A stretch of 64,000 nucleotides of DNA from Candidatus Dojkabacteria bacterium. Its GTDB lineage: Bacteria > Patescibacteriota > Dojkabacteria > SC72. The stretch covers positions 593,073-657,072 of the forward strand of contig JBMNHC010000001.1 of assembly GCA_050950165.1 (NCBI GenBank). The letters are read 5' to 3'. The notes under the pieces were generated by a model. That model did no database searches and had not been told where the DNA came from. It saw only the letters and a program-made list of their open reading frames with translations. The number at the start of each line of letters is the position of its first letter. Within the stretch, counting starts at the first letter, position 1. The position numbers and the translations under genes are program-made. This document shows, piece after piece, positions 9,315 to 62,220 of this stretch.

Positions 9315-11834
9315 CTAGAATATCTTTAATCCATCTAGTCCTACTCCATCCATCTGTGTAAAGTTAAGTAGATCTACAAATGAAGAGGTTGTAGACCAGC
9401 TACTAACAGTATCGTCTGTGTCCCAGAATCTAATTCTCCAGTAATATATGGCTCCTGTGTTAGCAAGTTGTGGTCCTGCATATGTAATATCTGGGGATCT
9501 AGTCCCACTTGCTGTTGATGTCATGGGTTGTTTACCTGAATCCCAGAGTGTTGAGCCAGTAAAATTGCTATTTGAATTTATCTCTATTTGATAATATGTT
9601 GCACTGTCTCCATTGGGGTCACTATGTATCGCAGAGAATTTTGGTCTTACTACTGTAAGCCAAGCTGGATTTGTTTTTCCATCTACTAGGGGTCCTGAGG
9701 GAGCTGTAGGTACACCAGCCATTCTAAATGAGGCAGTAGTAGACCATTCTCCTTCTACATTTAAATTATCCCAGAATTTAATTCTCCAGTAATATATATC
9801 TCCACTTTGTGTAAGGGTAGTACCAGCATATGATATGTCTGGAGACCTCGCTCCTATGGCTGTAGAGCTCATACTTGTTTTTCCACTATCCCACATACTA
9901 GTACCAGTAAATGAAGAGTTAGTATTTACATGTATTTGATAGTATATACCAGTATTCCCACTATCACTGTCTTGGAATATTGCACTAAACTCTGGTGTAG
10001 TGTCATACACCTTGTTAGGATTACTTTCTCCTTCTGTAAGTAGAGAGGTTGGTGCTGTAGGTGATTCATTTGCAGTAAATTGAGCAACAGAAGACCAGTT
10101 ACTTTCGGAATATATGACTCCGTTATCCCAGAATTTAATTCTCCAGTAATATGTAGTACCTGGAGTAAATGTAGATCCACCATATGAAATATTTGATGAT
10201 CTTGCTCCATTGTTGATAGGGGTAATTGCAGTTTTTCCACTGTCCCACATACTAGTACCTGTAAATGAGGAGTTAGTATTTACTTGTATTTGATAGTAGA
10301 TTCCTGTATCAGAGGTATCAGGATCACTAAATACAGCACTAAAATATGCAGAAGAAGAGATAACTCCTGATGGATTAGTAGCTCCGTTTGTTAGTAATGA
10401 AGAAGGTGGATTGGGTTGTCTGTTCAATATCTCTTCTCCCCCGACAGAAGTAGCTTGAGAAGTTTTTCTCTCTATATATATTACTGAGTAGTAAGAGGGA
10501 ATATTAGAGTTAGTTAAAGATACTGTTGTAGTATGTGTATGGTCAGCATTAGCATATACTATACTAGAAGGATTCCACTCTTGCCGAGAAGTGGTATCAG
10601 CAAGACTTATACTCACATTATGTGTATGAGTTGATGACCCTTGAGCAGTTAGATTAGCAGTAGCAGCACCCATTAAGAAATTGTTATTCATTGTAGTATA
10701 TTGGGTCCAACCTAGTGGTGGAACAGCACTAGCCATTGCAATTACATTTGTTCCTAAAGTTGTTGTTGCTGGACTTTTTACAAAAAGTAGACTTTTGTAT
10801 GGTGGATAGTTTGATGCAGCAGGATTAGATGTTAGAGAAACAGGATGTGTGTGACTAGTAATAGCTATACCTCTCTGATTTGGAGAAGGAACAGTTAGAC
10901 CGTAACATTGTGTATTTGTAGTTGCTGCCATAGACAAGTCTGTAATTGTATGTGAGTGTGTAGCTGCACCACCTGTACCACCATATGTAGCATTTCCAGC
11001 AGGAAGTCTTCCGTCAAATGCAGACATTCTTGTCCACCCAGATGGTGTTGTGGTAGAAAACATTATAATATTAGCTAAATTTGATAGATCACTTTTTTGA
11101 CATACGATTGAATAGATATATGGTGGAGTTGAACTAGCAGAGCCTACGGTTCCTGATACATTATGGGTATGTCCTTGGGTAGGTGCACAAACAACTTCGT
11201 CACTTCCACCAACTCCACTACCAGCAGATCCGCCAGATGAAGCTACAGTAAATGAGCCCCCATGGTTGTGATTACTTGCTACTCCTCCAGTAGATCCTGC
11301 AGTTGTAGAACCGTAGATAAATTTCCCATCAAAGGATGAACTTCTGGTCCAACCATTAGCACATGCTGTATCAGAGAGGGCATAGAAAACTCCTGACCAT
11401 CCACTCTGTCCACTCCCTGCAGATGTATTACCGTAGTATGCATATATTGTTTTTCCTCCTGATGGTAGTGATGGAATTCTTACCCATATTTTTGTACTAG
11501 TAGTATTACATCCTCCCTCTATCCAGTATGAAAGTAGTGTGGTATCGTTACTATCCACAAACCTTAAATCATTACAGTTAGATTGTAGTTTACCTGCTGT
11601 AATTAGAGATTGTGTATCTAATGTAATTAATACATCTTCATTAGTTAGTGTAGAACCAGAATTACTAACAGTAATCGCTCTTCTATACAACCAGTTATTA
11701 TCATACCAAGCAGAACTATCTTCTGTTTTCTCTCTATTAGAAAGATATACCAAAAGAGGTGTACCTAAGAGTATTACTAATGTTGATGCTATGAGAATTG
11801 TTCTTTTAGATATCTTTTTAAAAGGGTTTTCCAT
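9315..11834 (-). CDS. Large membrane-anchored surface protein. It combines a DUF2341-like N-domain, repeated HxH phage-tail-collar-like motifs, and three tandem ~110-aa FN3-like repeats.
   Basis: 839 aa with an N-terminal TM (ILIASTLVILLGTPLLVYL). W..NW.YRR.ITV resembles DUF2341. Six motifs (NHNHGG, GHTHNVSG, THSHTITD, SHTHPVS, THTHNVSI, DHTHTT) recur. Three repeats share ...YYQI.VNTNSSFTGTSMWDSGKT...YYWRIKFWD. Composition is Ser/Thr/Gly-rich. Confidence 0.7.
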   Translation of the reverse strand: MENPFKKISKRTILIASTLVILLGTPLLVYLSNREKTEDSSAWYDNNWLYRRAITVSNSGSTLTNEDVLITLDTQSLITAGKLQSNCNDLRFVDSNDTTLLSYWIEGGCNTTSTKIWVRIPSLPSGGKTIYAYYGNTSAGSGQSGWSGVFYALSDTACANGWTRSSSFDGKFIYGSTTAGSTGGVASNHNHGGSFTVASSGGSAGSGVGGSDEVVCAPTQGHTHNVSGTVGSASSTPPYIYSIVCQKSDLSNLANIIMFSTTTPSGWTRMSAFDGRLPAGNATYGGTGGAATHSHTITDLSMAATTNTQCYGLTVPSPNQRGIAITSHTHPVSLTSNPAASNYPPYKSLLFVKSPATTTLGTNVIAMASAVPPLGWTQYTTMNNNFLMGAATANLTAQGSSTHTHNVSISLADTTSRQEWNPSSIVYANADHTHTTTVSLTNSNIPSYYSVIYIERKTSQATSVGGEEILNRQPNPPSSLLTNGATNPSGVISSSAYFSAVFSDPDTSDTGIYYQIQVNTNSSFTGTSMWDSGKTAITPINNGARSSNISYGGSTFTPGTTYYWRIKFWDNGVIYSESNWSSVAQFTANESPTAPTSLLTEGESNPNKVYDTTPEFSAIFQDSDSGNTGIYYQIHVNTNSSFTGTSMWDSGKTSMSSTAIGARSPDISYAGTTLTQSGDIYYWRIKFWDNLNVEGEWSTTASFRMAGVPTAPSGPLVDGKTNPAWLTVVRPKFSAIHSDPNGDSATYYQIEINSNSNFTGSTLWDSGKQPMTSTASGTRSPDITYAGPQLANTGAIYYWRIRFWDTDDTVSSWSTTSSFVDLLNFTQMDGVGLDGLKIF

Positions 11835-12015: not shown

Positions 12016-12573
12016 ATGAATAATACAATCGTTTTAATTGACGATGAAAATTTCATATACAAAATGGAAAAAGTTCTTAGAACAGAGAATATCAAAATTA
12101 ATATCCAAGACATTAAATTGCGAGATTTAATATCAAGAGCTATTAAATCGAATGTTGATATTAATTTCTACGCAGCAAGGTTAAGATTTTATTCAAGTAC
12201 ACCCAGAAAATCTAAACAATTGATAGATACTCAAAGACGTCTGAGAAACACTCTTAAAAAACAGGAAATAAATTTTATCTATTCAGGATATGTAAGAGCA
12301 AGAAGAGAGAGAGGTAGAACTGTATTCAAAGAGAAAGGTGTTGATGTGAAAATAGCTGTTGATATGGTAAGTATGGCTTGTGACAAGAGATACGAAACAA
12401 TTGTATTGTGCTCTTCAGATTCTGATCTTCAACCTGCAGTTACCGAAGCCAAGTCTCGAGATGTTAGAGTTGTATATTTAGGATTTAGTATGGAGCCTAA
12501 TAGAGGGCTTATATATACAACAGATAGAACGGTTTTGTTTGATAATGATGAGATACTATCTGTTGTTAGATAA
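12016..12573 (+). CDS. NYN-domain (LabA-like/DUF88, PIN-like) protein
   Basis: 185 aa. GVDVKIAVDMV...ETIVLCSSDSDLQPAV matches the NYN acidic-residue pattern. Confidence 0.7.
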   Translation: MNNTIVLIDDENFIYKMEKVLRTENIKINIQDIKLRDLISRAIKSNVDINFYAARLRFYSSTPRKSKQLIDTQRRLRNTLKKQEINFIYSGYVRARRERGRTVFKEKGVDVKIAVDMVSMACDKRYETIVLCSSDSDLQPAVTEAKSRDVRVVYLGFSMEPNRGLIYTTDRTVLFDNDEILSVVR

Positions 12574-49020: not shown

Positions 49021-52000
49021 ATGAAGCTAAACAAAAAGCTCCTAAAGAAGTCTTTGTATAAGATTTCTACAGTCCTATTTTTAATAGGATATACTTTTAC
49101 CCCACCATTTTTGGCATTTGATCAATTAAGAGATATAGGAGGAGAGATTACTCCTGTAGCTGCTGCTGATGGGCCGTATACTATTTCTTCTACTAGTGGT
49201 ATTTGGACTAAGGTTGAAGGAACAACTAACTATTCTGGTGTGAATACCAGTGAGATAAGATGGGGAACTGGAAATCCAAGAAGTGGACTAAAATTCACTT
49301 CTGCTGGTGCTCAAACTTTTGATGCAAATCAGAAATTTCTCATAGGAGATTTAACACATATGAACTGGCCAGTTTCTGGTGGTACTGCAGATTCTGCAAC
49401 TCTAAAAGTTACTTTGAATTTTTCTCAACCTCCTCTTTCTCCAAATCCAACATTTTCATACAAGTTTAATATAAATGAAACGAGTAATGGATATTCTTGG
49501 TATAAAAATTGTCCAGGATATCCTGATGAACAGTTAAGCACAACCCCATGTGATGATGTGATTACGTTCCCAAGTGCATATGGACAGGAAGTTTTTACAA
49601 TTGGGGATATGAAATATACATTAAAGATTGATGGATTCCAAAGTCAATATCCAACAGGAGATCCTGTATCTAAATTCATAACAGAAGAAAAGAAAGATAA
49701 TGTAGCATATTTGGTTGGTCATCTAAGTTCTATTTTAGTTGAAAAACCAGCTATCTCCATTGTTAAGAAAGTAAATGGACAGGATGCTAATACTCCTGCA
49801 GAAGCAGTAGAGGTAACAGCAGGAGAAACTGTAAATTTTGAATATATTGTACAGAATACAGGTAATGTAAAGTTAACAAACATTGCAGTAACAGATGACA
49901 AAGGAGTACAAGTAACATGTCCAGGAACAGAATTAGAACCAGGTACAAATATGACTTGTACAGGAAGTGCTACAGCTATTGCAGGTGACTATACTAATAT
50001 TGGTACAGTTACATCATCTCATGATTTATCAGCAAGTGATCCTGCAAACTATAAAGGTATTATTCCTACAATTAGAATTTGTCATGCATCTGGTTCACAT
50101 ACAAACCCATATATTGTAAATAATCCAAGTGCATCTGGAGATTTGAATGGGCATGCAGGACATACTGGTCCTATTTGGTTCCCAGGTATAACAGTAGATT
50201 GGGGAGATATCATTCCTTCATTTACATCATATGATGGAGTTTACTTCCCTGGTCTTAACTGGAGTGAGTATGGACAAGCAGTGTATAACAATAACTGTGT
50301 AATTCCACAAGGTAAAATAATTGTAAAGAAAGTTTTAAGTCCAGCTTCTACTAGTAATCAAGCATTTGAAATAGTTGGTAGTGGTACTCCTGCAATAGAG
50401 GGTTCCCCTACTTTCTTGTATTACAGTAATAGCAATATTGGAAGTATTAGTAGGAATCAGTCTCATACATACAATGTAATGCCTGGTACATATAATATTG
50501 CAGAAACAGTACCAGCAGGTTGGAGTTTAGTAAGTAATACATGTTCAAATATTGAAATTACAAATAATGAGACTAAGGAGTGTACTATTACTAATACACA
50601 ACATGGTTCATTAACTATTGTTAAAAGAGCTCTACCATATGGTAATACTTCATTTGGATTTAAACTTTCAGGTAATGGAGTTAGTGAACAGTTTAATTTA
50701 GTAGATAACTCTGAAACAGAAGATGCAAGTAAAACATTTAGTTTAACAACAGGTACATATGCAGTTGCAGAAGATGACTATAGTGCAGATTGGAAAACAA
50801 CACACTCTTGTACAAAAGGTAGTATAGATAATATTGCATTGGGTGCAGGTGAATCAGTAACTTGTACATTTACAAATACAAAATATGGATCTATCTCAGG
50901 ATACAAATTACAAGATGCTGACAACGATGATTCTACTACTACAGATAGAACTCCAGTTTCTGGATGGACAATAATTCTAAAAGATAAGAATGGGACTGAA
51001 ATAGCTAGAACAACAACTAATGTAAATGGATATTATGAATTTACAGGATTACTTCCTGCAGATTACATAGTAACAGAAGGTCTTGAAGTTGGTTGGATAG
51101 TTTTAGTTGGTGATAGCAAGAATGTAACATTAGATGCAGGTGAGAATGAAGAGAATGTGAATTTTGTAAATGTTAAGTTAGGTAGTATTAAAGTTCTAAA
51201 GAATGTTGATACAGATGGAGATGGAGATGTAGATCAGGAGGGTTCAACAGAGTGGTCTTGGACACTTAACGGAGCAAATGCGGGTGCAACAGGTACAACT
51301 AAATCTGATTTGGAACCAGGTTCATATACAATTAAAGAGACAGGTGGCTTAGATAACTTCCACTTTGTTTCATTAAGTTGTACAGGTGCAGCAGATGAAA
51401 GAATCACTATCACAGATGATACTGCTACAATAGATTTAAGATCTGGTGAAGATGTAGTCTGTACATATACAAATGCAAGAAACTTAGGAAAGTTAATAAT
51501 TGAGAAGGAAGTTATTAATGATAATGGTGGTAGTAAGAAGGCTACAGATTTCTCATTCCAGATAGATAGTGAAGATGCAATTCAATTCACTAAGAATGGA
51601 GAGAATGAATTACTAGGAAGAAATGAGTATGTAAGATATGCAGGTCTCTCCTACACTATTACAGAACCTGAAGCAAATCAGGATGGATATACAACTACAT
51701 ACAGAAATTGTGAAGATATTGTAGTTCCTCATGATGGTGAAGTTGTATGTAAGATTACGAATAATGATAGTAAGCCTTCACTAACTCTTGTTAAGGAAGT
51801 TAAGAATGATAACGGTGGTACAGCAGTTAAAACCGATTGGAACTTGAAAGCAGATGGACCTACTCCAATCAGTGGAGATGGTGGTGCAACAAGTGGTGAT
51901 GATTTCCAAGCAGGTACATATATATTAAGTGAGAGTGGAGATGTAGCTGGGTATAATGCAAGTGATTGGAGTTGTACAAATGGTGTTGTAGTTGATGATA

Positions 52001-55000
52001 ACAATGGAATAACCATTGGAATAGGTCAATCTACTGTATGTACAATAGTAAATGATGATATTGCACCTTCATTACAATTAGTTAAAGTTGTTAATAATAA
52101 CTTTGGTGGTAATGCAAAAATTACTGATTGGGCACTAACAGCAACTGGTCCTACAACAATCACAGGAAATGGTGGTGTTACAAGTGGAGATACCTTTAAG
52201 GCAGGTACATATACATTAAGTGAGAGTGGAGATGTAACAGGATATGATGCAAGTAGTTGGAGTTGTACCAATGGTATTACAGTTGATGCAAACAATGGAA
52301 TTACTTTAGGAGTTGGTGAGTCTACAGTATGTACCATTACTAATAGTGATATTCAGCCAACATTGACTTTAGTTAAGACTGTTGTAAATAAGTATGGTGG
52401 TAATAAAGAAGTATCAGACTTTAATCTCTACATAGGAGATACCAAAGTAACAAGTGGTGTTGCTACAGGTGTAAATGCAAATACACAATATACAGTAAGA
52501 GAAGATCAATTAGATGGATATACAGCATCTGATTGGAGTGGAGATTGTAGTGCAGATGGAAAGATTACATTACTTCCAGGTGAGAACAAGACCTGTACTA
52601 TTACAAATAGTGATTCTCAGTCTAAGATTACCGTTATTAAGAAAGTAGTTAATGATAATGGTGGTACAGCAACAGCTAATGATTTTAATATTACCTTAAC
52701 AGACTCCACATTAACGTTTGATGCAGGTGTAAAAGATGGTGATACAACAACTTACACAGCTTCAGTATTTGGAGATGTAAATAAGGAATACACACTATCT
52801 GAAACAGTTGCAAATACAGGATATACAATGGATAGTTTAGAATGTTCTCTCGGTTCTGATGGAGTCTTTACTCTTCCAGAAGGACAAGATGTAACTTGTA
52901 CAATTGTTAACAATGATATCCAACCAAAGCTTACTGTAGTTAAAGTTGTTGATAATGAAACATATGGTAACAAGGAGGTTTCTGATTTCACACTCTATGT
53001 ATCAGGAAATAAGGTAACCAGTGGAGATGTTAATAACTTAGATGCAGGAGAGTATACAGTAAGTGAAGATAACATTGATGGATATGAGGCTACAATAACT
53101 GGTGATTGTGATGTTCAAGGTAAAGTTACATTAAATCCTGGTGATGATAAGACCTGTACTATTACAAATAGAAGTACACACGGTAAGATAGTTATTAAGA
53201 AACTAGTTGAACCTGATACAGATTCTACAGAATTTACATTTACAGGTGATGTAGCTGGAACAATTGGTCATAATGGAACTATTGAAAAGATAGTAGTTCC
53301 AGGAGAGTACTCTGTAGCAGAAACATCTTTAACAGGATGGAATCTGAAATCTCTAGTATGTGATGATACAGATAGTAGTGCAAGTGGATATACAGCAAGA
53401 ATTAAGGTTGGAGATAATGAAACAGTAACATGTACATTTACTAATGAGAAATTAGGAAAGATCTCAGGTTACAAGTACGAGGATAAGAATGGAAATGGTA
53501 TATGGGATGCAGAAGAGCCTGCATTAGATGGTTGGACTATCAACAATGGACTTGGTGATAGTACAACAACAAATGCTAGTGGATACTACGAGTTTACTAG
53601 CTTACCAGTAGGTAATACATATACAATTACTGAAACTCAAAAAGATGGTTGGACTCAAACATCCACTAACCCATCAGCAATTACAATTGTTGCAGGAGAT
53701 GATGTTAAGGATATAAACTTTGGTAACTTCAAACATGTAACAATCAATGTAACTAAAGATGTTGTTGGTATAGATGGAGTAACTGATGTTGAAGACGACA
53801 GAACATTTACTGCACAACTTAATGGTGGAAATGAAAAATTAATATCTGAGACAACAACAGCTACATATACAATTGAACAGCCTGGTACATATACAGTATC
53901 AGAGTTTGATGTGGTGGACTACACATATCTAGGATGCTTCTTAGGAGATGTTGCATTTACTGACTATGCAGTAGAGAGTGGTAAAATATACAATGTAGTA
54001 TGTAAGAATGCACAACTACCAGCAACAGTAATAGTTACAAAGAATGTAGTAAATAGTGATGGGGTTGATGAGGATGTATTCTCAGATGATCAGTTTGATG
54101 TTGTACTTGGTGAAGAAACTAAACAGATTGCAGACACAGCAAATGGTAAGGTACTTGCTACATTTGAAGGATTACAACCAGGAGAGTACACATTAACAGA
54201 AACTGAAAAGGATGGATATATCTTTGAAGGATGTACAAACTCTGAGGGTACTCTTGGAAGTAATGAGACTGTAGAAGTTGTATGTACAAACAGAGTAATT
54301 GATCCTCTTCTTGAGATTGAAAAGAGTAATGATAAAGAAGGTATAGATCAATATGCAGGAGATGAAGTTACATACACAATTAAAGTAACAGCACCTAGCG
54401 ATGAACTAGATGGAACATATGTTCTAAATAATGTAGTTATTTCTGACATTGCTCCAGCAGGATTTGAATATATCTCTGATACATGGACAGCACAGAAGAA
54501 TGGTGTTGATATCATAGTTCCTGAACCTACATATGATGGAGAAAATGCAGCACAGTGGATAATTGGAGATATGAAAGAAGGAGATGAAGTAGTATTAACA
54601 TACAAAACTAAGATCTCTCTTCTTACAGATCCAGGAGTATATCCAGATATCGCATGGGTAAAAGGTGCCTCTATAAGTAATCTTCCTGTTTTGGGTAATG
54701 TATCTACAGATGCTTCTACTCCATTTGTAGGAACAGAAGTTAAAGTAATAGAGCCAATTGAAACAGAAGATGGAGAGGTATTAGGAGCTATATCATATCT
54801 ACCAAAAACAGGTGCAGATACATATCTAACATTAGGAGCATTAGCTATGGTGTTACTAGGCTTGTTTGCCCTACTCTCTAGACCATTTAAGAAATTAAAG
54901 TATGCTTTACTTACAACAGTAATGGCTTTTTCAATACTCTCAGTTGCTTTAGCAACAGAGGTGTTAGCTGAGCCTTACTTAGATGTTAAAATCGAAAAAC

Positions 55001-55812
55001 CAGTAACTCCTACTGCTAAAAAGTCATTTAATATTGATTTCACAGCACAGAGTACATCTGGAGAGACACCAGAAGTGGATTGTTACAAAGATGCAGTTAA
55101 ATTTGCATCCTTTACTGCTAACTCTGGAGCATGTCCAGTAACAGTAACAGAGTCAGGTACATACTCATTCTATGTAGTTGCAACTGCAGGAGGTCAAACA
55201 GAACAATCTGAAACAGTAACAGTCGTAGTAGATTTAACTTCACCATCTCCTGTTACGGGATACAGCAAGAGTGGTAATGTATTAACATTTACAACTGCAA
55301 ATGATGGTAGAACATCTAAGGTTGAGATATTTAGATCAGACAAGTCATCATTTACAGCAAATGCATCAACCCGTCTTGATACAATGAATGTATCACCTAA
55401 TACAACATATACATATACAGATGGAACAGCAGTAGCAGGAAACACATATTACTATGCATTAAGAGCTGTAGATGCATATGGTAATGTCTCAACACTTGTT
55501 TCAGACAATGTAGTGATTGTTGTAAAAGAACCAGCTACTACTACAACTACTAATGTAGCTAAAACAGAAACAAGTGAAGTAGAAGGAGCAACAGATGAAG
55601 ATAAAGATAGTGCATCTAAGGAAGTAAAGGGAGAAACAGATGATAGTACAACTCAAAAAGCAGACGAGGGTAAAGAGAGTAATGAAACTAATGATTCTGA
55701 TTCAGATGAAAAGAAATCATTCCTTAGTTATTGGTATATCTGGGTTCCAGTATTAATTGTATCTGTAGGATTAGTCTATCTTTATGTCAGAAGAGAGAAA
55801 AAGAGTTACTAA
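49021..55812 (+). CDS. Giant LPxTG-motif cell-surface protein (2263 aa). It carries DUF11/'CTITN' Ig-like tandem repeats and CnaB/SdrD-B-like domains. A complete sorting signal sits at about residue 1930. An in-frame signal-peptide-like segment, an FN3-like domain, an acidic linker and a terminal TM follow it.
   Basis: The N-terminus has signal/TM character. About eight ~100-aa repeats end in ...C(T)ITN. GYKYEDKNGNGIWD is a CnaB-type motif. LPKTG + LTLGALAMVLLGLFALL + SRPFKK is a textbook sortase signal. The ORF then continues as KKLKYALLTTVMAFSILSVALATEVLA..., ending in ...YIWVPVLIVSVGLVYLYVRREKK. Confidence 0.85.
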   Translation: MKLNKKLLKKSLYKISTVLFLIGYTFTPPFLAFDQLRDIGGEITPVAAADGPYTISSTSGIWTKVEGTTNYSGVNTSEIRWGTGNPRSGLKFTSAGAQTFDANQKFLIGDLTHMNWPVSGGTADSATLKVTLNFSQPPLSPNPTFSYKFNINETSNGYSWYKNCPGYPDEQLSTTPCDDVITFPSAYGQEVFTIGDMKYTLKIDGFQSQYPTGDPVSKFITEEKKDNVAYLVGHLSSILVEKPAISIVKKVNGQDANTPAEAVEVTAGETVNFEYIVQNTGNVKLTNIAVTDDKGVQVTCPGTELEPGTNMTCTGSATAIAGDYTNIGTVTSSHDLSASDPANYKGIIPTIRICHASGSHTNPYIVNNPSASGDLNGHAGHTGPIWFPGITVDWGDIIPSFTSYDGVYFPGLNWSEYGQAVYNNNCVIPQGKIIVKKVLSPASTSNQAFEIVGSGTPAIEGSPTFLYYSNSNIGSISRNQSHTYNVMPGTYNIAETVPAGWSLVSNTCSNIEITNNETKECTITNTQHGSLTIVKRALPYGNTSFGFKLSGNGVSEQFNLVDNSETEDASKTFSLTTGTYAVAEDDYSADWKTTHSCTKGSIDNIALGAGESVTCTFTNTKYGSISGYKLQDADNDDSTTTDRTPVSGWTIILKDKNGTEIARTTTNVNGYYEFTGLLPADYIVTEGLEVGWIVLVGDSKNVTLDAGENEENVNFVNVKLGSIKVLKNVDTDGDGDVDQEGSTEWSWTLNGANAGATGTTKSDLEPGSYTIKETGGLDNFHFVSLSCTGAADERITITDDTATIDLRSGEDVVCTYTNARNLGKLIIEKEVINDNGGSKKATDFSFQIDSEDAIQFTKNGENELLGRNEYVRYAGLSYTITEPEANQDGYTTTYRNCEDIVVPHDGEVVCKITNNDSKPSLTLVKEVKNDNGGTAVKTDWNLKADGPTPISGDGGATSGDDFQAGTYILSESGDVAGYNASDWSCTNGVVVDDNNGITIGIGQSTVCTIVNDDIAPSLQLVKVVNNNFGGNAKITDWALTATGPTTITGNGGVTSGDTFKAGTYTLSESGDVTGYDASSWSCTNGITVDANNGITLGVGESTVCTITNSDIQPTLTLVKTVVNKYGGNKEVSDFNLYIGDTKVTSGVATGVNANTQYTVREDQLDGYTASDWSGDCSADGKITLLPGENKTCTITNSDSQSKITVIKKVVNDNGGTATANDFNITLTDSTLTFDAGVKDGDTTTYTASVFGDVNKEYTLSETVANTGYTMDSLECSLGSDGVFTLPEGQDVTCTIVNNDIQPKLTVVKVVDNETYGNKEVSDFTLYVSGNKVTSGDVNNLDAGEYTVSEDNIDGYEATITGDCDVQGKVTLNPGDDKTCTITNRSTHGKIVIKKLVEPDTDSTEFTFTGDVAGTIGHNGTIEKIVVPGEYSVAETSLTGWNLKSLVCDDTDSSASGYTARIKVGDNETVTCTFTNEKLGKISGYKYEDKNGNGIWDAEEPALDGWTINNGLGDSTTTNASGYYEFTSLPVGNTYTITETQKDGWTQTSTNPSAITIVAGDDVKDINFGNFKHVTINVTKDVVGIDGVTDVEDDRTFTAQLNGGNEKLISETTTATYTIEQPGTYTVSEFDVVDYTYLGCFLGDVAFTDYAVESGKIYNVVCKNAQLPATVIVTKNVVNSDGVDEDVFSDDQFDVVLGEETKQIADTANGKVLATFEGLQPGEYTLTETEKDGYIFEGCTNSEGTLGSNETVEVVCTNRVIDPLLEIEKSNDKEGIDQYAGDEVTYTIKVTAPSDELDGTYVLNNVVISDIAPAGFEYISDTWTAQKNGVDIIVPEPTYDGENAAQWIIGDMKEGDEVVLTYKTKISLLTDPGVYPDIAWVKGASISNLPVLGNVSTDASTPFVGTEVKVIEPIETEDGEVLGAISYLPKTGADTYLTLGALAMVLLGLFALLSRPFKKLKYALLTTVMAFSILSVALATEVLAEPYLDVKIEKPVTPTAKKSFNIDFTAQSTSGETPEVDCYKDAVKFASFTANSGACPVTVTESGTYSFYVVATAGGQTEQSETVTVVVDLTSPSPVTGYSKSGNVLTFTTANDGRTSKVEIFRSDKSSFTANASTRLDTMNVSPNTTYTYTDGTAVAGNTYYYALRAVDAYGNVSTLVSDNVVIVVKEPATTTTTNVAKTETSEVEGATDEDKDSASKEVKGETDDSTTQKADEGKESNETNDSDSDEKKSFLSYWYIWVPVLIVSVGLVYLYVRREKKSY

Positions 55813-58929: not shown

Positions 58930-60501
58930 ATGTTAAATAGCAATAATACTAAGGAACATGAGAGAGCAGAATTACATAAAACAATATGGCGAATAGCAAA
59001 TGATTTAAGAGGTAGTGTAGATGGTTGGGATTTTAAACAGTATGTACTTGGTATGTTGTTTTATCGTTTCATTAGTGAAAATCTCACTAGTTATCTTAAT
59101 GCAGGAGAGAGAAGAGCAGGAGACAAGGACTTTAACTATGCAGATATTTCAGATAAAAAAGCTGAGAATGGTAGAAAGGATACTGTTGAAGAAAAAGGTT
59201 TCTACATTCTTCCTAGTGAACTTTTTGAGAATGTAAGAAAGAATGCAAAGAATGACCCGAATCTTAATGAAACTTTAGCTAAGGTGTTTGATAATATTGA
59301 GAACTCTGCAAGAGGGTTTGAAAGTGAAGATGATCTAAAAGGTCTGTTTGATGACTTAGATGTGAACTCTAAGAAATTAGGAAATACTGTAGAACAAAGG
59401 AATGAAAAGCTTGTTAAGTTGTTAAATGCAATTGGAGATTTAAATCTAGGAGAGTATTCAGATAATACAATTGATGCTTTTGGAGATGCCTATGAATTCC
59501 TTATGACCATGTATGCTTCTAATGCAGGTAAGTCAGGAGGTGAATTCTATACTCCTCAAGAGGTTAGTGAATTACTTGCAGAGATAACTACGGTAGGCAA
59601 AACAGAAGTAAACAAGGTGTATGATCCAGCTTGTGGTTCAGGTTCATTACTTTTGAAGTTTTCAAAGGTTTTAGGAAAGGAGAATGTAAGACAGGGTTTC
59701 TTTGGACAGGAGATTAATCTTACAACATACAACCTTTGTCGTATAAATATGTTTCTTCATGATATTAACTACAATAATTTTGATATAGCTTTAGGTGATA
59801 CATTAACAGACCCTAAGCATTGGGATGATGAGCCTTTTGATGCAATAGTATCTAATCCTCCATACTCAATTAAGTGGGAGGGAGATAGTAATCCTCTCCT
59901 TATAAATGATCCTCGTTTCTCACCTGCTGGTGTTCTAGCACCTAAGAGTAAAGCAGACTTAGCTTTTACAATGCACATACTTTCTTGGCTTTCTACTAGT
60001 GGTACTGCTGGTATTGTTGAATTCCCTGGTGTGCTTTACAGAGGTGGTGCAGAGCAGAAGATTAGGAAGTATTTGGTAGATAATAACTATATTGATACTG
60101 TAATACAGCTTCCTCCTGATTTGTTCTTTGGTACAAGTATTGCAACTTGTATTATTGTTCTAAAGAAGAGTAAGAAAGAAAATAGTATTCTTTTCATAGA
60201 TGCATCAGAGGAGTTTGTAAGAGAGGGTAACAAGAACAAACTTAGTGAGGAGAACAGGAAGAAGATATTAGATACATTTAAGCAAAGGAAAGATATACAA
60301 CATTTTGCTAAGGTAGTAGATAACCAAGATATTGGAGAGAATGATTACAATATATCTGTATCTTCTTATGTAGAACAGAAGGATACTAGAGAGGTTATAG
60401 ATATTAAAGAACTTAATAAAGAGATAGAGGAGATAGTAAAGAGACAGAATGTATTAAGAGATAGTATAGATAATATTGTTAGGGAGATAGAAGGGGAATG
60501 A
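58930..60501 (+). CDS. hsdM: Type I restriction-modification DNA methyltransferase subunit
   Basis: 523 aa with an HsdM N-domain, EFYTP, a SAM motif (DPACGSGS) and NPPY (SNPPYSIKW). Confidence 0.9.
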   Translation: MLNSNNTKEHERAELHKTIWRIANDLRGSVDGWDFKQYVLGMLFYRFISENLTSYLNAGERRAGDKDFNYADISDKKAENGRKDTVEEKGFYILPSELFENVRKNAKNDPNLNETLAKVFDNIENSARGFESEDDLKGLFDDLDVNSKKLGNTVEQRNEKLVKLLNAIGDLNLGEYSDNTIDAFGDAYEFLMTMYASNAGKSGGEFYTPQEVSELLAEITTVGKTEVNKVYDPACGSGSLLLKFSKVLGKENVRQGFFGQEINLTTYNLCRINMFLHDINYNNFDIALGDTLTDPKHWDDEPFDAIVSNPPYSIKWEGDSNPLLINDPRFSPAGVLAPKSKADLAFTMHILSWLSTSGTAGIVEFPGVLYRGGAEQKIRKYLVDNNYIDTVIQLPPDLFFGTSIATCIIVLKKSKKENSILFIDASEEFVREGNKNKLSEENRKKILDTFKQRKDIQHFAKVVDNQDIGENDYNISVSSYVEQKDTREVIDIKELNKEIEEIVKRQNVLRDSIDNIVREIEGE

Positions 60502-60998
60502 GTCAAACAACAGATCTAGATGAAATTAGAAAACAAACTAGAGTAGCTTTGCCATCAGATAATGCCTATTTATTTAGGTTAGGAGTTGCTTTGTATGCTT
60601 TTAATTCAGTGAATAGTTCCTTGGTGGAAACAATTTGTTGTATAGATAGTAATCAAAAACAAACAGAGTTACTTGATTTAGAATCAGGTAAAATCTTACA
60701 GAGATTTTTTGAAATAATAAGGAATGTTAAAAAGAAAAGTCTTTTTTCTTCTGCTCATGGATTGATGGATGAAGTAGCTGAATTATTTGAGAAAGCAAAT
60801 GCAAATCGTTCAGATTTTGTACATTCATATCCAATTACAAATCAAGAAGAGAAGCAAATTCTGCATCGTAGGAGAGATTCACAAGGTAAATATTTTGAGG
60901 TAGATAATTGTTTCTTAGATGCATTTATTGAAAGTCTAAATCATATAGAAGATTTTTTATATAAAATACGAGAGGAGGTAAAAAGTAAAAATGAATAA
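60498..60998 (+). CDS. Small hypothetical protein embedded between hsdM and hsdS, putatively HEPN-like (R-x4-H motif)
   Basis: 166 aa. It overlaps hsdM by 4 nt (ATGA) and hsdS by 8 nt. It is predicted all-alpha, and NRSDFVH fits the HEPN Rx4-6H signature. Confidence 0.5.
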   Translation: MSQTTDLDEIRKQTRVALPSDNAYLFRLGVALYAFNSVNSSLVETICCIDSNQKQTELLDLESGKILQRFFEIIRNVKKKSLFSSAHGLMDEVAELFEKANANRSDFVHSYPITNQEEKQILHRRRDSQGKYFEVDNCFLDAFIESLNHIEDFLYKIREEVKSKNE

Positions 60999-62220
60999 GA
61001 ATCTAAGTGTTTTACCAAATAAATTAGAGAAACTGGTACGAAATCTATGTCCAGATGGGGTCGAATATGTAAAGTTAGGAGAGGTTGCTCAATATTGTAG
61101 AGGAGTAACTTATAACAAGAGTGATGAAACTGATTCTGAAGAAGGGTTGAAGATTTTAAGGGCAAATAATATTGACTTATCAACAAATAGGTTAAATTTA
61201 GAAGATGTGAAAAAAATATCTTCGTCAGTTAAAGTGCGTGGTAATCAGAAGATAAAAGCTAATGATATTCTAATTAGTACTGCAAGTGGTAGTAAAGAAC
61301 ATGTAGGAAAAGTAGCATATGTCTTTAATGATATGGATTATTATTATGGTGGATTTATGGCAGTATTGAGATCTAATGAAAGATTGGATAGCAGATTTCT
61401 TTTTCATTTACTAGTTGGTAAGACTTTTAATGATTATCTGCGAAGAACATTGTCAAGTACAACAATAAACAATCTAAGTTCAAGGATTATAAACGAATTT
61501 AAAATCCCCCTGCCTCCTCTTGACATACAAAAGGAGATAACTAAAATTCTTAACGAGTTTACAGAGTTGGAGGCAGAGTTGGAGGCAGAGTTGGAGTGTA
61601 GAAAGAAACAGTATGAGTATTATAGTAATGAGCTGTTATCATTTAATGAAGATGGAGAATATAAAGAACTAGGAAAATTGTTAGAAAGAACGAAAGGAAC
61701 AGCTATTACAGCGAAGAGAATGAGTGAGCTTAATAAGGATGGTGCTCCTATTAAAATTTTTGCAGGAGGTAAAACTGTGGCTTATGTAGACTATGGAGAT
61801 ATCCCTAATAAAGATGTTCTTACGGAAGAATCAATTGTTGTGAAGTCTCGCGGTATTATTGGCTTTGAATATATTGATAAGCCTTTTAGTCATAAGAATG
61901 AGTTTTGGTCATATCATAGTAATAATCCTAATGTCTCTGTTAAATATGTATATTATTATTTAAGGAGTAAAGAACCATACTTTCAAAGGATTGGTCAGAG
62001 AATGTCAAAAATGCCACAACTTTCAATTCCAGATACTGATAAATACAAAATCCCCATCCCCCCTCTCTCCGAACAAAAAAGAATTGTATCCATACTAGAC
62101 AAATTCGACTCCTTAGTAAATGATATGTCCATAGGATTACCAGCAGAACTAAATGCAAGAAGAAAACAATACGAATACTATCGTAATAAACTATTAACAT
62201 TCAAAGAATATGGAAAGTAA
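60991..62220 (+). CDS. hsdS: Type I restriction-modification specificity subunit
   Basis: 409 aa. Two target-recognition domains are separated by conserved helical regions (LPPLDIQKEITKILNEF / IPPLSEQKRIVSILDKF; central ELEAELEAELECRKKQYEYY and C-terminal LNARRKQYEYYRNKLL). Confidence 0.9.
   Translation: MNKNLSVLPNKLEKLVRNLCPDGVEYVKLGEVAQYCRGVTYNKSDETDSEEGLKILRANNIDLSTNRLNLEDVKKISSSVKVRGNQKIKANDILISTASGSKEHVGKVAYVFNDMDYYYGGFMAVLRSNERLDSRFLFHLLVGKTFNDYLRRTLSSTTINNLSSRIINEFKIPLPPLDIQKEITKILNEFTELEAELEAELECRKKQYEYYSNELLSFNEDGEYKELGKLLERTKGTAITAKRMSELNKDGAPIKIFAGGKTVAYVDYGDIPNKDVLTEESIVVKSRGIIGFEYIDKPFSHKNEFWSYHSNNPNVSVKYVYYYLRSKEPYFQRIGQRMSKMPQLSIPDTDKYKIPIPPLSEQKRIVSILDKFDSLVNDMSIGLPAELNARRKQYEYYRNKLLTFKEYGK
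61564..61596 (+). repeat. About 2.75 copies of a 12-bp tandem repeat (gagttggaggca) encoding (ELEA)n in the HsdS central conserved spacer
   Basis: The direct sequence read is gagttggaggca gagttggaggca gagttggag. Confidence 0.6.

Follow-up and report, generated by a model that had tools for sequence, protein, structure and literature searches.

The window analyzed here is a stretch of 64,000 nucleotides of a Candidatus Dojkabacteria genome (WS6, Patescibacteria; assembly GCA_050950165.1, contig JBMNHC010000001.1, positions 593,073 to 657,072), and the gene in question is a complete coding sequence for a surface-type protein of 839 amino acids (aa), deposited at NCBI as a “DUF2341 domain-containing protein” of Ca. 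Dojkabacteria (MGI6423544.1). Its neighbors are housekeeping genes, coding for an RsmD-like methyltransferase, ThrRS, IF3, PheST, SpoU, RecG and RelA/SpoT, and the slot that it occupies, with RelA-RecG-SpoU on one side and RsmD-ThrRS-IF3 on the other, is the same in ~35 related Dojkabacteria genomes. The gene thus has a stable place in the chromosome, and a prophage remnant was rejected on account of the conserved synteny. Scans for promoters and terminators around the gene gave nothing above shuffle expectation. The coordinates of its features are collected in Table 1.

Table 1. Features of the gene and of the encoded protein, with positions in the window.
Feature	Protein (aa)	Window (nt)	Strand	Basis or remarks
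Complete coding sequence	839 aa	9315..11834	-	ATG start, TAG stop
N-terminal hydrophobic membrane anchor/signal anchor	11-31	11742..11804	-	Kyte-Doolittle, ortholog conservation
DUF2341 beta-sandwich	41-146	11397..11714	-	Pfam, AlphaFold2 model, ortholog identity
Fibre-tip-like unit 1	147-248	11091..11396	-	HxH at aa 189-191 (nt 11262-11270) and aa 222-224 (nt 11163-11171)
Fibre-tip-like unit 2	252-355	10770..11081	-	HxH at aa 293-295 (nt 10950-10958) and aa 328-330 (nt 10845-10853)
Fibre-tip-like unit 3	361-457	10464..10754	-	HxH at aa 403-405 (nt 10620-10628) and aa 432-434 (nt 10533-10541)
Hypervariable inter-HxH loop, unit 1	192-221	11172..11261	-	12% ortholog identity with length kept, low model confidence, dN/dS
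Hypervariable inter-HxH loop, unit 2	296-327	10854..10949	-	11% ortholog identity, low model confidence, dN/dS
Hypervariable inter-HxH loop, unit 3	406-431	10542..10619	-	12% ortholog identity, low model confidence, dN/dS
Three tandem Ig-like repeats	481-590, 591-706, 707-815	9390..10394	-	Pfam Ig_Rha78A_N
C-terminal tail, ending in conserved MDGVGLDGLKIF-COOH	816-839	9318..9389	-	Conservation among family members

The protein begins with a basic segment (KKISKR) followed by a hydrophobic stretch at about aa 11-31 that is the sole Kyte-Doolittle window above 1.6 in the whole sequence and is kept in the orthologs. The N-terminus is a plain basic plus hydrophobic anchor, in which the sequence shows no class III/prepilin motif. 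Behind it, Pfam places DUF2341 (PF10102) at aa 86-156 with 64.5 bits and an E-value of 1.2e-17, above the gathering score of 23.4 bits. An earlier reading of this DNA, made from the letters alone (hereafter the sequence-only reading), had recognized a DUF2341-like domain by a W..NW.YRR.ITV segment. The domain is there. The segment (aa 43-56) stands before the stretch matched by Pfam, and in the AlphaFold2 (AF2) model it supplies the first strand of that beta-sandwich; aa 41-152 were predicted as one such fold with a predicted local distance difference test (pLDDT) of 91 and a predicted template modeling score (pTM) of 0.82. A Foldseek search of this model against the PDB returned only generic accessory beta-sandwiches (E >= 0.08). 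In the C-terminal part three repeats of ~110 aa, mutually 47-59% identical, had been called FN3-like; the three repeats are confirmed and the family is another one, because fn3 (PF00041) has no match on the protein at E <= 10 while Ig_Rha78A_N (PF25788) covers three stretches of aa ~481-815 (137.3 bits, E 2.8e-40, gathering score 27.4). The full rhamnosidase model NF041572 scored 90 bits against a cutoff of 1800, and the protein is therefore not a rhamnosidase. The general picture, a mosaic anchored in the membrane and built from a DUF2341 domain and three repeats of Ig-like type, is thus upheld by the Pfam scan and the hydrophobic stretch. What remains between the two annotated parts is aa 157-460, for which scans of the whole protein against Pfam, NCBIfam and PHROGs gave no family.

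This middle region contains exactly six HxH motifs (two histidines separated by one residue, starting at aa 189, 222, 293, 328, 403 and 432), and all 12 histidines of aa 157-460 sit in them. None of 100,000 composition-preserving shuffles reached six HxH (mean 0.43, maximum 5). The histidines moreover form invariant or nearly invariant columns in the homologs, and for that reason the motifs are not an artefact of low complexity, the possibility that the sequence-only reading had named as fatal to its proposal. That reading had also seen six spaced, separate collar-like segments. The six motifs are real, but they belong in pairs to three tandem units of ~100 aa, which match one another at blastp E-values of 1e-13 to 8e-10 and jointly are one module of ~310 aa. 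All three units show the collinear motifs G.I..F - P.GW - F.RG - GG..HxH - spacer - HxH - N.PPY..v.f.K, and the fuller order of motifs in the unit is G.IaiF, P.GW(T)R, F.RG, tYGgtGG, HxH, a spacer of ~28 residues, HxH and sNlPPYi.vif.K.

A profile of the dojkabacterial type of unit (alignment A1, 23 units) was searched against 1.84 billion representative proteins clustered at 50% identity, and at least 3,311 protein clusters matched at E <= 1e-3 (1,381 at E <= 1e-10). Against Pfam the same 23 units gave no significant family match, Gp10_C reaching an E-value of 0.0033 in one unit, and phmmer of the middle region against the PDB sequences returned only a spurious cyclophilin match (E 0.39). The unit family is large and widespread, yet it has no Pfam model, and no description of the triple-unit module was found in the papers that our literature searches retrieved. 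To call such an architecture unusual on a cellular protein was therefore an overstatement, as the module occurs widely and only lacks annotation. Among the sampled source names, the module was also found in a 5,808-aa protein of Woesearchaeota (DPANN archaea) and in a protein from a metagenome-assembled genome labelled as Actinomycetota.

In the proteins examined the units almost always stand in contiguous triplets. Among 158 proteins, 122 had three units and another 22 had six, arranged as two separate triplets. When the units of different proteins were compared, the best match lay at the same position in 149/155 cases for unit 1, 145/155 for unit 2 and 149/155 for unit 3, and these same-position matches averaged 47 bits above those within a module. 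Positions 1, 2 and 3 thus correspond as orthologs from one protein to the next, and the sequence comparison indicates an ancient triplication and a triplet inherited as a single domain. The spacer between the two HxH measured 28 +/- 2 aa across the 155 modules. The module typically follows a DUF2341-like region, which was found directly upstream of 71 of the 119 modules that had room for it, and only 14 of the 155 modules end near a C-terminus. A second architecture without DUF2341 was seen in three proteins (P0003, P0004 and P0006), in the order N-terminal anchor, a “WTQTSQ.DF..G” segment, the triplet and a conserved C-terminal domain ending in ...GRYKQWRATLT...LQEVRVYYYG.

The module is related to the receptor-binding tips of phage tail fibres. 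The profile of the dojkabacterial units and that of a phage-type unit (alignment A3) align in hhalign at 99.9% (E 9.5e-35). Proteins with a single unit (P0007, P0009, P0158-P0178) are small or fibre-like and carry the unit at their extreme C-terminus. P0007 is found on phage contigs of IMG/VR, where it adjoins a major head protein, and its N-terminal part matches PHROG tail fibre/tail spike families; P0171 is encoded beside integrases, with a tape-measure gene upstream. In the Actinoplanes phage phiAsp2, pas28 and pas29 come after the putative tail protein gene pas27, and the depositors labelled Pas29 as a “possible receptor recognizing protein” with HXHY motifs and a likeness to the phage TuIa tail fiber. 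With the unit hidden Markov model (HMM), Pas29 (E 1e-15) and Pas28 (E 3e-11) each contain one three-unit module. Members of the family are, in these examples (P0007, P0171 and Pas28/Pas29), encoded in phage tail modules, while the window gene itself is chromosomal.

Pas28 and Pas29 are among the closest known systems and, like the window protein, have a three-unit module in a single chain. However, they are phage virion genes without DUF2341, membrane anchor or Ig_Rha78A_N repeats, their units have four HxH each instead of two, and the sequence identity is 19-20%. The single-unit phage tips (P0007, P0158-P0178 and gp60 of phage Pa223) share with the window units the motif order G.I..F/W...P.GW, F.RG...GG, HxH, variable segment, HxH, N.PPY..v.f.K. 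They differ in that each chain ends in a single unit and the assembly is a trimer, whereas the window protein, which is cellular and membrane-anchored, has three diverged units in the interior of one chain. With regard to solved structures, the links are less strong though consistent. The unit profile aligned in hhalign with residues 67-214 of the trimeric Pa223 gp60 (PDB 9NXK) at 89%, with a pairwise E-value of 2.2e-6 over 95 collinear columns; the HMMER E-values for the same entry were 0.06-0.13. Unit 3 of Pas28 matched 6ov6 (E 0.0018) and, more weakly, 9qgo (the Pvc13 fibre, E 0.039) and 9nxk (E 0.062), and all three are three-chain entries. The 6OV6 protein, a fibre of a Bizionia prophage, and the Pvc13 tip are phage fibre tip domains that can be superposed on T4 gp10/gp12 (PMC10097599). 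The kinship of the HxH region with phage receptor-binding tips, which the sequence-only reading had proposed, is thus borne out by the profile alignment, by 9nxk and by the structural match to Pas28/Pas29 given below. Neither the module nor a phage unit taken singly had a tblastn match in 50,697 GenBank phage genomes, for which low-complexity filtering and divergence are the probable cause.

In phage versions of the unit, such as P0171 (locus L083, 8822-9451) and Pas28/Pas29 (locus L081, 19272-25990), the spacer between the HxH is expanded with extra HxH runs, reading HTHTTSDHIHTAPSHTHIAPSHTHTAPSHTHTTGMHAH in P0171, and cellular triplets hold exactly two HxH per unit. These runs resemble the multi-iron HxH needle of T4 gp37, a trimeric long tail fibre whose HxH motifs coordinate iron octahedrally (PMC11705849). 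In the gp37 needle, paired HxH from three symmetry-related segments hold the metal in that geometry; the window module has two HxH in each of three units, and a metal would be bound in a comparable manner.

Structure prediction is consistent with a compact module. The AF2 model of aa 144-461 (318 aa, from 34 aligned modules) had a mean pLDDT of 80.4 and a pTM of 0.78. It is all-beta, with an equal strand pattern in the three units, and low confidence is confined to the three inter-HxH spacers. With a pTM of 0.78 over its 318 residues, the module is more likely one packed body than a string of three beads. This value, the arrangement in triplets and the positional orthology of the units all favor a putative pseudo-threefold assembly, in which the histidines may cluster. 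In a Foldseek search of predicted viral structures the module matched Pas28 (E 2.5e-13) and Pas29 (E 1.8e-12) with TM scores of 0.57-0.58.

The comparison of orthologs revealed a marked contrast between the gene and its surroundings, as the neighbors are 70-87% identical between genomes and the window protein only 40-52%. Over 13 syntenic orthologs the identity to the window protein was 66% for DUF2341, 51-59% for the Ig repeats and 27-48% for the scaffolds of the units, and it fell to 11-12% in the three inter-HxH loops, with almost no change in their length. In the two closer ortholog pairs the ratio of nonsynonymous to synonymous substitutions (dN/dS) was also highest in the loops (0.37 vs. 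0.05-0.19 in one pair and 0.19 vs. 0.04-0.13 in the other). The architecture behaves as a cassette formed by DUF2341, the three units and one to five Ig repeats, the number of repeats varying from 1 to 5 among the orthologs, and in some proteins the whole DUF2341-triplet-Ig cassette is repeated two or three times. At three loci (L006, L007 and L026) the syntenic gene has grown in this way to 1,700-2,500 aa, by cassette duplication up to three times; some units in these large genes appear split by insertions and were counted as four HMM matches.

The module is best described as a triplicated phage tail-fibre tip domain in a single chain, unannotated so far and typically coupled to DUF2341 in surface proteins of the type found in the candidate phyla radiation (CPR) bacteria and DPANN archaea. 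We consider it probable that it works as a single-chain pseudo-trimer of the fibre tip and provides this Dojkabacteria surface protein with a variable ligand-binding module. The protein would sit at the cell surface, with the N-terminal anchor fixing it in the membrane, and its core is the recurrent cassette of a DUF2341 beta-sandwich, the ~310-aa three-unit module and Ig-like repeats in variable number. Each unit is a homolog of the tip domain with which trimeric phage tail fibres end at the C-terminus. A phage chain contributes one unit to a three-fold assembly, whereas the window protein and Pas28/Pas29 have three diverged units in one chain, predicted to fold into a single pseudo-threefold body that would replace the three chains of the tip trimer. 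The two HxH pairs of each unit may converge into two six-histidine metal sites (Fe2+ or Zn2+), in parallel to T4 gp37; the module is probably metal-stabilised, and the three hypervariable loops of ~28 residues would form a variable surface for binding ligands. Binding would be specific and the ligand external, most plausibly a structure on the surface of a partner cell, and the protein a putative adhesin or receptor-binding protein. The possible role in host attachment that the sequence-only reading mentioned is compatible with the hypervariable loops. DUF2341 proteins are already regarded as putative adhesins (PMC4858521, PMC11809585), and the domain is common to the window protein and the adhesin-like proteins of archaeal type IV pilus loci and the giant CPR surface proteins. 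Compared with the pilus-associated adhesins, the window protein has no visible prepilin-type signal, and a search for type IV pilus genes in the scanned open reading frames (ORFs) of the window gave none; the neighbors and the other ORFs scanned are housekeeping genes.

Several observations weigh against this interpretation. The link to solved structures consists of one hhalign alignment at 89% and marginal HMMER matches (E 0.002-0.13), and significant matches to Pfam Collar, T4 gp12 or T4 gp10 failed to appear. Foldseek of the module against PDB chains also found none at E <= 0.001; this could stem from setting a single chain against just one of the three in an intertwined trimer, but it is a null result all the same. 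The module is internal, between DUF2341 and the Ig repeats, whereas phage tips are terminal. The HxH motifs are conserved, being complete in all three units at site B (the second HxH of each unit) in 140 of the 155 modules and at site A (the first) in 109, but site A is incomplete in ~30% of the modules, and the losses are independent among the units (109 complete modules observed vs. 107.5 expected), which lends no support to strictly cooperative six-histidine sites and is neutral to slightly negative for a metal on the three-fold axis. Finally, dN/dS in the loops never exceeds 1, so that positive selection is not indicated, and relaxed constraint on flexible loops rich in Ser, Thr and Gly would explain the values equally well.

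Some of these observations fit a different explanation, in which the module is a structural stalk or spacer, or else a coat element of S-layer-like or antigenically variable kind, that has no specific ligand and in which the HxH only stabilise the fold while the loops are unconstrained. The position of the module in the middle of the protein rather than at its distal end, the loop dN/dS of 0.19-0.37, the composition and low pLDDT of the loops and the repetition of whole cassettes are all as such an element would have them. However, the loops are free in sequence and fixed in length, a combination typical of binding loops on display, the phage domains homologous to the units are receptor-binding tips, and the gene is held at one chromosomal slot across the related genomes. 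We take this explanation to be unlikely, although it is the strongest of the alternatives.

Somewhat less probable still is that the module belongs to the ordinary phage tail collar family (PF07484, of the MdpB/T4 gp12 type), with the HxH as six collar-associated motifs, in line with the likeness to collar domains that the sequence-only reading had proposed. Some likeness to this family does exist. The tip of 9nxk gives a Collar match with an E-value of 2.4e-4 that stays below the threshold (21.4 bits, with a gathering score of 24) and covers only positions 1-21 of the 57-position profile, and the phage-type profile aligned in hhalign with the first strand of the Collar of T4 gp12 at 27.9%, over 21 columns only. 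The layout of T4 gp12, with the Collar followed by an HxH (YHKH) and a C-terminus in ...NYIIK, is also collinear with the unit; the YHKH of gp12 binds zinc. More generally, the tips of the T4 gp12/gp10 type (PF07484 + PF14928; PF21939; 9QGO; 6OV6) are trimeric receptor-binding tips that share the start IP.G.I..W..lP..W, the HxH and a hydrophobic C-terminal strand. Membership itself is not supported, as Collar has no match at E <= 10 on the window protein or on any of the 23 units, and the best that Pas28 gives is an E-value of 7.9. As a positive control, T4 gp12 was recovered by Collar at 7e-14 together with S_tail_recep_bd, and gp10 by Gp10_C. The hhalign values were 0.8% for the dojkabacterial units against aa 335-527 of gp12, where Collar and the receptor-binding region lie, and 0.6% for the phage-type units against the C-terminus of gp10. 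The units, which are about half as long as the gp12 tip region, lack about 36 of the 57 profile positions, corresponding to the CDG...LPDLRGRF segment at the center of Collar. Since the first strand (IP.G.I..W...P..W) is shared, a remote common ancestry of the units and Collar is plausible.

A metal-dependent enzyme or metal-scavenging domain, with a cupin-like or amidohydrolase-like HxH site or acting as a metallophore-like binder of metals at the surface, is highly improbable, for although the twelve conserved histidines imply metal binding and the Gly-rich segment before the HxH (GG..tHtH) superficially resembles cupin motif 1, Foldseek found no cupin, amidohydrolase or other enzyme fold, Pfam and NCBIfam gave no enzyme family, the invariant columns are only W, G, H, P and Y with no conserved acidic or catalytic residues, and the sequence homology points to phage fibres, so that the cupin/amidohydrolase reading of the HxH was rejected for want of any fold or family in its favor.

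Outside the module, the C-terminus of the protein belongs to a pattern that is found more widely. A tail of ~12 aa with the consensus [FYM]xG[LIV]x[LM]xG[LIV][KR][LIV][NDF]-COOH, corresponding to aa 828-839 of the window protein (9318-9353, minus strand), ends most of the complete CPR proteins with terminal repeats of the Ig_Rha78A_N type among the ORFs of loci L001-L064, whether or not they have the DUF2341-triplet cassette; it reads, for instance, MDGVGLDGLKIF, FEGLKLEGLKIN or YEGLKLNGLKLD. The tail is neither a transmembrane segment nor an LPXTG motif, and may be a tag for sorting, anchoring or strand donation.

The window contains some other genes worth recording. Between the surface-protein gene and SpoU there is a gene for an NYN-domain protein, a predicted RNase (12016-12573, plus strand), to which none of the ~35 syntenic Dojkabacteria loci gave a tblastn match, so that it looks like an insertion specific to the window. 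The window also encodes another large surface protein, of the pilin/adhesin type, at 49021-55812 (plus strand); it has 2,263 aa and contains six SpaA_2 prealbumin-fold domains plus SpaA, SdrD_B, DUF7507 and DUF11. Farther along, at 58930-60501 (plus strand), there is the HsdM methylase of a type I restriction-modification system (N6_Mtase + HsdM_N), and the two ORFs that follow it (60498-62220) may be the specificity and restriction subunits.

Recognition of the partner and attachment to it are largely unexplained in CPR and DPANN lineages, whose giant surface proteins mostly carry no annotation beyond “DUF2341” or “hypothetical”. With the module defined, a large unannotated family has become searchable, and it merits an entry in Pfam/InterPro. 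Its homology ties it to the receptor-binding tips of phages, which makes it a candidate for partner recognition in episymbiotic lineages, with the three short hypervariable loops as the likely determinants of specificity. A homotrimeric viral domain has seemingly been converted here into a single-chain pseudo-trimer in which the positions of the units are still orthologous. As a tentative and more far-reaching proposal, episymbionts of ultrasmall size, among them the Dojkabacteria in the CPR and the Woesearchaeota in DPANN, might have taken the fibre tips of phages and fused three copies, as a metal-clamped pseudo-trimer behind DUF2341 on their surface proteins, with the loops setting the attachment to the host. 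If that were true, the module would be the cellular counterpart of a phage host-range determinant.

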